From: Escherichia phage HK630
DNA: 47,090 bases
Strand: one strand, 5' to 3'
Sequence record: NC_019723.1
Part shown: positions 22,498-23,730 of the stretch, in pieces
Layout of the letters: each line of letters starts with the position of its first letter
Numbering within the stretch: position 1 is the first letter of the stretch
Notes under the pieces: model-generated
The model's database searches: none
What the model saw: only the letters and a program-made list of their open reading frames with translations
Told to the model about the DNA's origin: nothing
Position numbers and translations under genes: made by a program

Positions 22498-23730
22498 TCA
22501 ATTGTTCATAGTGTTTACATCACCGCCAATTGCTTTTAAGACTGAACGCATGAAATATGGTTTTTCGTCATGTTTTGAGTCTGCTGTTGATATTTCTAAA
22601 GTCGGTTTTTTTTCTTCGTTTTCTCTAACTATTTTCCATGAAATACATTTTTGATTATTATTTGAATCAATTCCAATTACCTGAAGTCTTTCATCTATAA
22701 TTGGCATTGTATGTATTGGTTTATTGGAGTAGATGCTTGCTTTTCTGAGCCATAGCTCTGATATCCAAATGAAGCCATAGGCATTTGTTATTTTGGCTCT
22801 GTCAGCTGCATAACGCCAAAAAATATATTTATCTGCTTGATCTTCAAATGTTGTATTGATTAAATCAATTGGATGGAATTGTTTATCATAAAAAATTAAT
22901 GTTTGAATGTGATAACCGTCCTTTAAAAAAGTCGTTTCTGCAAGCTTGGCTGTATAGTCAACTAACTCTTCTGTCGAAGTGATATTTTTAGGCTTATCTA
23001 CCAGTTTTAGACGCTCTTTAATATCTTCAGGAATTATTTTATTGTCATATTGTATCATGCTAAATGACAATTTGCTTATGGAGTAATCTTTTAATTTTAA
23101 ATAAGTTATTCTCCTGGCTTCATCAAATAAAGAGTCGAATGATGTTGGCGAAATCACATCGTCACCCATTGGATTGTTTATTTGTATGCCAAGAGAGTTA
23201 CAGCAGTTATACATTCTGCCATAGATTATAGCTAAGGCATGTAATAATTCGTAATCTTTTAGCGTATTAGCGACCCATCGTCTTTCTGATTTAATAATAG
23301 ATGATTCAGTTAAATATGAAGGTAATTTCTTTTGTGCAAGTCTGACTAACTTTTTTATACCAATGTTTAACATACTTTCATTTGTAATAAACTCAATGTC
23401 ATTTTCTTCAATGTAAGATGAAATAAGAGTAGCCTTTGCCTCGCTATACATTTCTAAATCGCCTTGTTTTTCTATCGTATTGCGAGAATTTTTAGCCCAA
23501 GCCATTAATGGATCATTTTTCCATTTTTCAATAACATTATTGTTATACCAAATGTCATATCCTATAATCTGGTTTTTGTTTTTTTGAATAATAAATGTTA
23601 CTGTTCTTGCGGTTTGGAGGAATTGATTCAAATTCAAGCGAAATAATTCAGGGTCAAAATATGTATCAATGCAGCATTTGAGCAAGTGCGATAAATCTTT
23701 AAGTCTTCTTTCCCATGGTTTTTTAGTCAT
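22498..23730 (-). CDS. ea47: Ea47, b-region protein of unknown function
   Basis: 410 aa from MTKKPWERRLKDL... (internal Met of the 419-aa ORF-track frame); strongly AT-rich. Confidence 0.85.
   Translation of the reverse strand: MTKKPWERRLKDLSHLLKCCIDTYFDPELFRLNLNQFLQTARTVTFIIQKNKNQIIGYDIWYNNNVIEKWKNDPLMAWAKNSRNTIEKQGDLEMYSEAKATLISSYIEENDIEFITNESMLNIGIKKLVRLAQKKLPSYLTESSIIKSERRWVANTLKDYELLHALAIIYGRMYNCCNSLGIQINNPMGDDVISPTSFDSLFDEARRITYLKLKDYSISKLSFSMIQYDNKIIPEDIKERLKLVDKPKNITSTEELVDYTAKLAETTFLKDGYHIQTLIFYDKQFHPIDLINTTFEDQADKYIFWRYAADRAKITNAYGFIWISELWLRKASIYSNKPIHTMPIIDERLQVIGIDSNNNQKCISWKIVRENEEKKPTLEISTADSKHDEKPYFMRSVLKAIGGDVNTMNN

Follow-up and report, generated by a model that had tools for sequence, protein, structure and literature searches.

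The ea47 gene of Escherichia phage HK630 is a single-gene cargo cassette and encodes a candidate exclusion factor

In this study, we analyzed the gene ea47 and its surroundings in a 47,090-nucleotide stretch of DNA from Escherichia phage HK630 (NC_019723.1), referred to below as the window. The region 22300–24400 is 100% identical to the corresponding DNA of phages lambda and HK629, in which the gene is annotated as ea47; the coordinates used here are in register with HK629, and lambda positions equal window positions plus 188. We describe ea47 as a 'moron', an autonomous cargo cassette of one gene, located at a boundary element after the tail-fibre assembly gene. Its product belongs to a large, mostly proteobacterial family that we tentatively connect with conflicts between phages and other mobile elements.

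The open reading frame (ORF) of 410 amino acids (aa) that an earlier first-pass annotation, made from the letters alone, had placed at 22498–23730 was confirmed on the minus strand. A longer in-frame alternative of 419 aa starts with an ATG at 23757, which has no Shine–Dalgarno (SD) sequence. The 410-aa start is the correct one because GGAGAG lies 4 nt upstream of it and because all Ea47 homologues begin MxxKPWERRL, in agreement with this start. A word-indexed search returned 454 homologues at E ≤ 1e-3, and with a profile, searched against 1.84 billion cluster representatives, we obtained 1,308 clusters (50% identity) at E ≤ 1e-3, of which 389 reached E ≤ 1e-30; therefore, the ORF is not a product of chance. 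The Asn/Lys/Ile-rich composition noted earlier was also found (Ile 11.2%, Lys 9.5%, and Asn 7.3%, together 28%). The GC content of ea47 is 31.4%, and 26.8% at third codon positions, compared with 57% GC in the structural genes. With at most 11 hydrophobic residues in any 20-residue window, the protein is probably soluble.

A 44-nt hairpin-forming element flanks ea47 as a direct repeat (Table 1). The two copies are 77% identical, and the hairpin pattern occurs twice in the window, where 0 occurrences are expected. Each copy forms a stem of 12–14 bp with one bulge (folding free energy, ΔG, −15.5 to −22.8 kcal/mol; z −2.7 to −4.9), and the stem is maintained by compensatory changes between phages. 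Copy 2, on the upstream side, is common to 191 lambdoid phage records together with ~60–100 nt beyond it. Elsewhere, the conserved hairpin element is located 3′ of tail-fibre assembly or cargo genes and 5′ of dinI or attP; other copies were located at ~2470–2585 of locus L094, ~1490–1610 of L098, and ~1490–1600 of L099 in our collection. The downstream hairpin of lambda (copy 1) is an AT-shifted version of the upstream element over ~85 nt. PhiR11_1 and HK106 present the empty site, in which a single copy of the element stands right after the last tail gene, followed in HK106 by attP and int. On this sequence comparison, copy 2 and its flank represent the ancestral boundary element, which lambdoid phages have 3′ of a tail-fibre or cargo gene; its function may be that of a terminator, an RNA-processing site, or a recombination linker. 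The Stx2a phage Stx2_EH2246 has the same element between the effector gene nleC and dinI and contains no ea47. The cargo slot of this phage (L099, 238–1224) is filled by nleC, a type III secretion effector gene. Since nleC occupies the same hairpin-bounded slot in a Stx2a-converting phage, defence-like and virulence cargo use one insertion hot spot.

Table 1 Features of the ea47 cassette in the window
Feature	Position	Strand	Description and basis
ea47 coding sequence	22498–23730	minus	410 aa and stop codon; ORF list, identity to annotated ea47, homologues
N-terminal half of Ea47 (aa 1–190)	23161–23730	minus	Helical bundle with an inserted small sheet, best conserved part; candidate effector domain (HEPN-like)
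Motif R-N-T-I-E-K-Q-G-D-L (codons 83–92)	23455–23484	minus	Family consensus R-N-x-[IV]-x-K-x-G-D-L
C-terminal alpha/beta domain (aa 253–410)	22501–22974	minus	Candidate sensor or regulatory domain; model and conserved residues
SD sequence GGAGAG	23735–23740	minus	4 nt 5′ of the ATG at 23730; read from the sequence
Candidate sigma-70 promoter	23782–23809	minus	TTGACA (23809–23804), 16-nt spacer, TATCAC (23787–23782); read from the sequence
AT-rich 5′ region, co-inherited with ea47	23731–23972 (242 bp)	minus	29.8% GC; 99–100% conserved in prophages with unrelated upstream genes
Downstream hairpin, copy 1, between ea47 and tfa	22384–22427		12-bp stem with one bulge; ΔG −15.5 (minus) and −22.8 (plus); z −4.9 and −4.6
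Upstream hairpin, copy 2 (23973–24016), with ~60 nt of conserved flank	23973–24077		Repeat, fold, and phage comparison

ea47 is also present, with at least 99.4% identity, in two natural E. coli prophages, of which one is in a chromosome and the other on a plasmid; both have unrelated genes in place of ea31 and ea59. In both, the homology to lambda extends from tfa through ea47 to ~340 bp 5′ of the ATG (~24070) and then ends. Because of the empty sites, the repeats, and this co-inheritance, the 1,589-bp unit consisting of one hairpin copy, ea47, and the 242-bp 5′ region can be described as an insertion at the boundary element. The unit has the layout of a moron, and relatives carry other cargo or none in the slot. 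Like the known lambdoid morons (lom and bor in lambda, nleC in Stx phages), ea47 is non-essential, deviates in GC content, is bounded by a hairpin, and has its own 5′ region, and it is absent from relatives that retain both flanks. Morons have their own promoter and terminator, and those of ea47 are candidates read from the sequence. The first-pass annotation assigned ea47 to the same accessory island as ea59 and ea31. The genes are indeed adjacent, on the same strand, and AT-rich; however, ea47 moves without the other two and is therefore independent of the ea59–ea31 island.

The spacer between ea47 and ea31 (24321–25211) is exactly 590 bp long, matching the earlier estimate of about 590 bp. 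Its description as non-coding AT-rich DNA was half right, since it fits the 242 bp adjoining ea47 and does not fit the second part (23973–24320), which has 46.6% GC and contains the conserved hairpin. A 69-aa ORF in the spacer (23920–24129, minus strand, GTG start), annotated in HK629, is probably not a gene because it spans the upstream hairpin and because its two halves are distributed differently among phages. Inspection by eye led us to reject an integron attC-type site as an explanation of the flanking hairpins: the AAC/GTT triplets are in the inner stem instead of at the outer ends, and the GTTRRRY core is absent. Rfam contained no RNA family matching 22300–24400.

In lambda, the leftward pL transcript, which is antiterminated by N, has ea47 as its last gene. 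This transcript reaches the b region on non-integrated DNA only, because attP lies between int and ea59. In addition, the earlier suggestion that the spacer could hold a promoter for ea47 is plausible from the sequence, the candidate being the TTGACA-16-TATCAC site within the co-inherited ~340 bp. The HK629 record annotates this site as a promoter, and a promoter of its own is needed in 16 of the 53 homologue loci described below because the upstream neighbour is divergent there. Copy 1 is predicted to be a terminator or boundary at the convergent junction of ea47 and tfa, and this role is probable. Three observations count against such self-contained expression signals. The candidate promoter matches the consensus at 10 of 12 positions and lacks the −7 T, the last T of the −10 hexamer; it was not among the sites picked up by a consensus scan, in which promoter-like sites were no more frequent than in shuffled sequences; and a U-tract on the ea47 strand is missing from both hairpins. 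No LexA box was seen by eye in the 5′ region.

The distribution of ea47 is that of an accessory gene, which bears out the earlier reading. Among 50,697 phage records searched by tblastn, relatives were present in 16, all of which were lambda or its derivatives with at least 99% identity. In IMG/VR, 25 of 2.9 million viral contigs encoded an Ea47 relative, ~10 of these being lambda, and the gene lies in the terminal 10% of the contig in eight of the 15 non-lambda contigs. ea47 is present in 121 of 5,426 complete E. coli genomes, always with at least 99% identity. The gene is non-essential by CRISPR interference (PMC10695390), and marker genes have been substituted for it without loss of phage growth.

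The first-pass annotation called Ea47 an orphan, which is wrong, as the protein belongs to a large family with its own Pfam entry. The best matches are E. coli proteins with 99% identity, which form a cluster of 809 sequences, followed by homologues with 73% identity in Citrobacter, 56–64% in Vibrio, Shewanella, Photobacterium, Pectobacterium, and Cronobacter, and ~40–45% in Betaproteobacteria; most family members are from Proteobacteria. A precomputed PF26900 (Phage_lambda_Ea47) tag is attached, over the whole length, to 120 of the 120 homologues among the matches listed, and the closest tagged homologue is 99% identical across 100% of the length of Ea47. PHROG 19262 (phrog_19262, 'unknown function') also matches Ea47 end to end. 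Lambda Ea47 is thus the namesake of PF26900 and a full-length match to both entries; however, neither carries a function, so that membership names Ea47 and explains nothing. Searches of Pfam with lambda Ea47, 62 members, and the 10 most divergent members gave chance-level matches only, and Ea47 had no match in NCBIfam.

We examined the neighbourhoods of homologues in 53 species-level loci, from which contaminant lambda DNA had been removed, using crude ORF calls and clustering of six genes on each side. No partner gene is conserved across these loci; the commonest neighbour family occurs in seven of them, at varying positions. The upstream neighbour is divergent in 16 loci, and the downstream neighbour is convergent in 26. 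The GC content of the homologue gene is lower than that of its flanks in all seven loci checked. The Pectobacterium homologue is in an integrase-bounded island with AbiTii, FRG, DUF5677, UvrD-type helicase, and Barstar genes, and the Shewanella homologue adjoins a pair of AAA_15/AAA_21 and RloB genes. One Vibrio homologue belongs to an array of small same-strand cassettes that is rich in DUF645 and resembles a superintegron, while that of Vibrio parahaemolyticus directly adjoins a prophage integrase. The Citrobacter homologue stands at the end of a Mu-like prophage next to DinI, and the Cronobacter homologue stands in a lambdoid prophage between the replication gene P and ninB. Overall, members of the family were located in prophages, at four distinct cargo slots, in a cassette array, and in islands with Lamassu, DRT, AAA_15, and PLD genes.

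The Pfam families matched most often by the 148 flanking proteins from the 53 species were Resolvase (5), AAA_15 (4), Phage_integrase (4), AAA_21 (3), PLDc_2 (2), RVT_1 (2), and DUF4238 (2); HNH was represented by two proteins. In PADLOC, the flanking proteins matched LmuB (3), AriA-like ATPases (3), DRT-type reverse transcriptases (2), HEC-01A (2), and PtuA (2). Defence-type genes recur within two to three genes of homologues in different phyla, and many other neighbours are ordinary genes. In our judgement, this pattern is the familiar picture of a mobile gene of defence islands. Two uncharacterized groups of genes were observed beside homologues, namely a pair encoding proteins of 371 and 584 aa (the latter with a weak SMC_N match) in the V. 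parahaemolyticus prophage (L009, 9483–12349) and a cluster of three genes (376, 128, and 220 aa) between P and the Ea47 homologue in the Cronobacter prophage (L097, 6318–8477). Both could be further cargo or defence candidates.

In six relatives of 575–917 aa, the Ea47 module is followed by a SEC-C zinc knuckle and, in most of them, by TPR repeats. The TPR-S sensor family is matched by two of the six fusions, one above and one below the Pfam gathering score. In these relatives, the Ea47 module holds the N-terminal 'effector' position, as in nucleoside triphosphate (NTP)-dependent conflict systems with TPR-S repeats (PF20308). These systems differ in that no NTPase domain was detected in the Ea47 fusions, and lambda Ea47 itself has neither TPR repeats nor SEC-C. 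Another relative has DUF5677 on the N-terminal side of the Ea47 module; comparison of the Ea47 family with the neighbouring DUF5677 protein using hhalign revealed no relationship.

Remote homology search and structure prediction, the checks proposed by the first-pass annotation, had different outcomes: the latter yielded a confident two-domain model, while profile searches of Pfam families and PDB sequences gave no function. The AlphaFold2 model, based on a 62-sequence alignment, has a mean predicted local distance difference test score of 89.7 and a predicted template modelling score of 0.88. The bundle of the N-terminal half is formed by helices 5–22, 27–50, 58–70, 74–89, 118–135, and 162–183. 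A poorly conserved linker (~185–250) connects it to the C-terminal domain, which comprises residues 253–400 in the model, has no solved structural relative, and has conserved residues H274, D297, K301, R306, E325, W327, E347, and R369.

In an alignment of 217 full-length members with identities down to 21%, R42, W78, R83, D91, S96, and W152 are invariant. The first-pass annotation recognized no motif by eye; however, one is present and essentially fixed in the family, R83-N84-x-[IV]-x-K88-x-G-D-L, with R83 and D91 in 217/217, N84 in 213/217, and K88 in 214/217 members. In the remaining three, which are distant members (P0182, P0216, and P0228), K88 is replaced by His, resulting in R-x4-H. Residues 21–100 are the most conserved (entropy of 1.3–2.0 bits), compared with 2.2–3.3 bits in the linker and C-terminus. 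Because the N-terminus is conserved and the linker and C-terminus are variable, a conserved effector joined to a faster-evolving sensor fits these data.

In the model, the N-terminal bundle resembles HEPN domains, and the motif has the same spacing and the same Arg-Asn start as the HEPN RNase motif, with Lys at the position of the catalytic His. Several results argue against this assignment. The His of the canonical Rx4-6H is replaced by Lys in 99% of the 217 members. Searches of HEPN Pfam families gave no match with 62 members (E ≤ 5), the 10 most divergent members (E ≤ 10), or lambda Ea47. Moreover, the motif lies late in helix 74–89 and not clearly at the start of the last helix of the bundle. 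HEPN RNases of abortive infection and toxin systems (HEPN/MNT toxins, e.g., PDB 7AE2 and 5YEP; Csm6; Abi proteins) have no sequence-profile match with Ea47 and a catalytic His where the Ea47 family has Lys in 99%, and the Ea47 bundle differs in its inserted sheet and in a C-terminal domain without a known relative. As neither the canonical motif nor a profile match was found, membership of Ea47 in the HEPN superfamily is not established, and the motif is at best a variant HEPN motif. A specific nuclease mechanism of the HEPN type is, on the basis of the model, unlikely.

From the genomic context and the predicted structure, we tentatively propose that the Ea47 family are one-protein exclusion or abortive-infection factors acting in conflicts between phages and mobile elements, a role that we consider possible and not yet probable. 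The N-terminal bundle, with R83-N84-x-I-x-K88 and R42, T45, Q49, and K52, would be the effector and, being HEPN-like, may bind or cleave RNA or nucleotides. The C-terminal alpha/beta domain would sense a trigger and hold the effector off until infection, and the SEC-C zinc knuckle and TPR repeats would extend sensing in some relatives. In lambda, transcription from pL would extend through ea47 once the phage has infected a cell or been excised, and its own promoter possibly transcribes it in lysogens. The first-pass annotation guessed at a host-interaction or exclusion function; this guess fits the location of homologues in defence islands and mobile elements and their fusions to TPR-type sensors, and the homology and literature searches gave no evidence of exclusion. 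Other findings speak against the proposed role. PADLOC-DB v2.0.0 contained no family matching Ea47 or two divergent full-length members, and neither the single protein nor the family profile matched any PDB sequence (profile E ≤ 10). In the searchable literature, no paper mentions PF26900 or gives a function or phenotype for Ea47, and the gene appears there as a dispensable insertion site. Finally, the counts of flanking genes stand without a matched background, so that 'enriched' would be a judgement. The gene and its Pfam family were known already; relative to the searchable literature, the placement as a candidate single-gene defence, the variant HEPN-like motif, and the unclassified C-terminal fold appear to be new.

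A different role has to be weighed for the same cargo. Ea47 may benefit the lysogen through stress response, regulation, or nucleic-acid metabolism, the island context reflecting integration hot spots. The slot in relatives holds the type III secretion system effector gene nleC and dinI, many neighbours of homologues are ordinary genes, and no defence hidden Markov model matches the protein. We nevertheless regard such a non-defence role as somewhat unlikely, since known defence-type genes lie close to homologues in different phyla, the module is fused to sensor repeats of conflict systems, and an invariant N-terminal domain with a variable C-terminal domain is typical of immune proteins. A decidedly unlikely alternative is that Ea47 is a counter-defence or host-takeover factor like Gam, Ral, and Kil, made early from pL in lytic growth to neutralize a host function. 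This would suit a gene at the distal end of the leftward early unit, which contains host-takeover genes, and its dispensability in laboratory hosts, which many counter-defence genes share; weak yeast two-hybrid hits to N and U (PMC3224144) also point in this direction. The proposal is difficult to reconcile with the absence of Ea47 from phage records outside lambda and its derivatives and its great rarity in IMG/VR. Homologues are mostly chromosomal genes of bacteria, located in islands, cassette arrays, and loci linked to a resolvase or integrase. Furthermore, fusions to TPR-S-type sensors are typical of immune proteins and not of inhibitors, and its length of 410 aa and two conserved polar clusters give Ea47 the look of an enzyme and not of a small inhibitor.

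The remaining two alternatives are largely or wholly decided by comparative data. Adjacency, the shared strand, and similar AT-richness of ea47, ea31, and ea59 would suit Ea47 as a third component, e.g., a sensor or regulator, of the Septu-like ATPase and HNH system of Ea59 and Ea31. This is largely refuted and very improbable: the natural E. coli prophages described above carry ea47 with unrelated genes in place of ea31 and ea59, no PtuA/HNH pair is conserved beside homologues in the 53 species, and a diverged copy of the boundary element lies between ea47 and ea31. A structural or housekeeping phage protein, finally, is refuted for practical purposes. The first-pass annotation had named homology to such a protein as evidence against its own reading, and no homology to any structural family was found. 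ea47 is non-essential, its replacement by marker genes leaves phage growth intact, and HK106, PhiR11_1, and Stx phages retain the flanking genes without it.

Lambda is the best-studied phage, and yet the use made of ea47 has been confined to the insertion of cargo. Should Ea47 prove to be a defence or exclusion protein, an immune function would have been lost unnoticed from many engineered lambda vectors and lysogens. In that case, a function would be assigned to a family whose sequence clusters across Proteobacteria number more than 1,300, and the easiest genetic system available could be used to test a variant active site of the HEPN type and a new sensor fold. More speculatively, Ea47 may represent a new and widespread class of single-protein immune effector, in which a HEPN-derived Lys-variant nuclease (R-N-x3-K) is combined with a C-terminal sensor of unsolved fold, and the lambda b region, with the Septu-like Ea59/Ea31, may be a defence island of two systems that went overlooked for decades; we consider this extended proposal doubtful. 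The position of ea47 between two hairpin copies is in itself a concrete example of cargo swapping at the junction between lambdoid tail-fibre genes and the att site, where prophages of enterohaemorrhagic E. coli carry effector genes.

The neighbouring genes ea59 and ea31 (24321–26785, minus strand) overlap by 4 bp. Ea59 has a full-length match to PADLOC PtuA (E = 8.8e-185) and also matches PDC-M01A (E = 8e-202). Ea31 matches PDC-M01B (E = 5.8e-113) and, weakly, HNH (Pfam E = 0.032, below the gathering score), and RefSeq names it an HNH endonuclease. Judging from these matches, the two proteins look like a Septu-type defence pair (PtuA ATPase and PtuB HNH nuclease); no paper linking ea59 and ea31 to Septu was found in the searchable literature. 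While this Septu/PDC-M01-like pair adjoins ea47 in the same AT-rich island, it has no domain in common with Ea47, which is inherited independently.

Matches with 95–100% identity to lambda were found in assemblies of Streptomyces, Fusobacterium, Neobacillus, Oceanobacillus, Leeuwenhoekiella, Chromatium, and Pseudomonas, often on low-coverage contigs of up to ~48 kb. Such lambda-identical DNA in implausible hosts is almost certainly contamination by lambda control DNA, and the loci concerned (L014–L022, L025–L029, L031, L033, L051, L055, and L056) were set aside. The record MW057783.1, 'Campylobacter phage CJLB-4' (48,361 bp), shows 100% identity to lambda across the 2.1-kb query, in which ea47 is contained, and looks like lambda deposited under a different name. 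In Enterobacteria phage O276 (MH547045.1/NC_049951.1), only residues 1–323 of Ea47 are present, with 99.7% identity, and this remnant lies beneath features annotated as 'orf401' and 'ABC binding cassette-like', which suggests a deletion in the b region that cut ea47 short.

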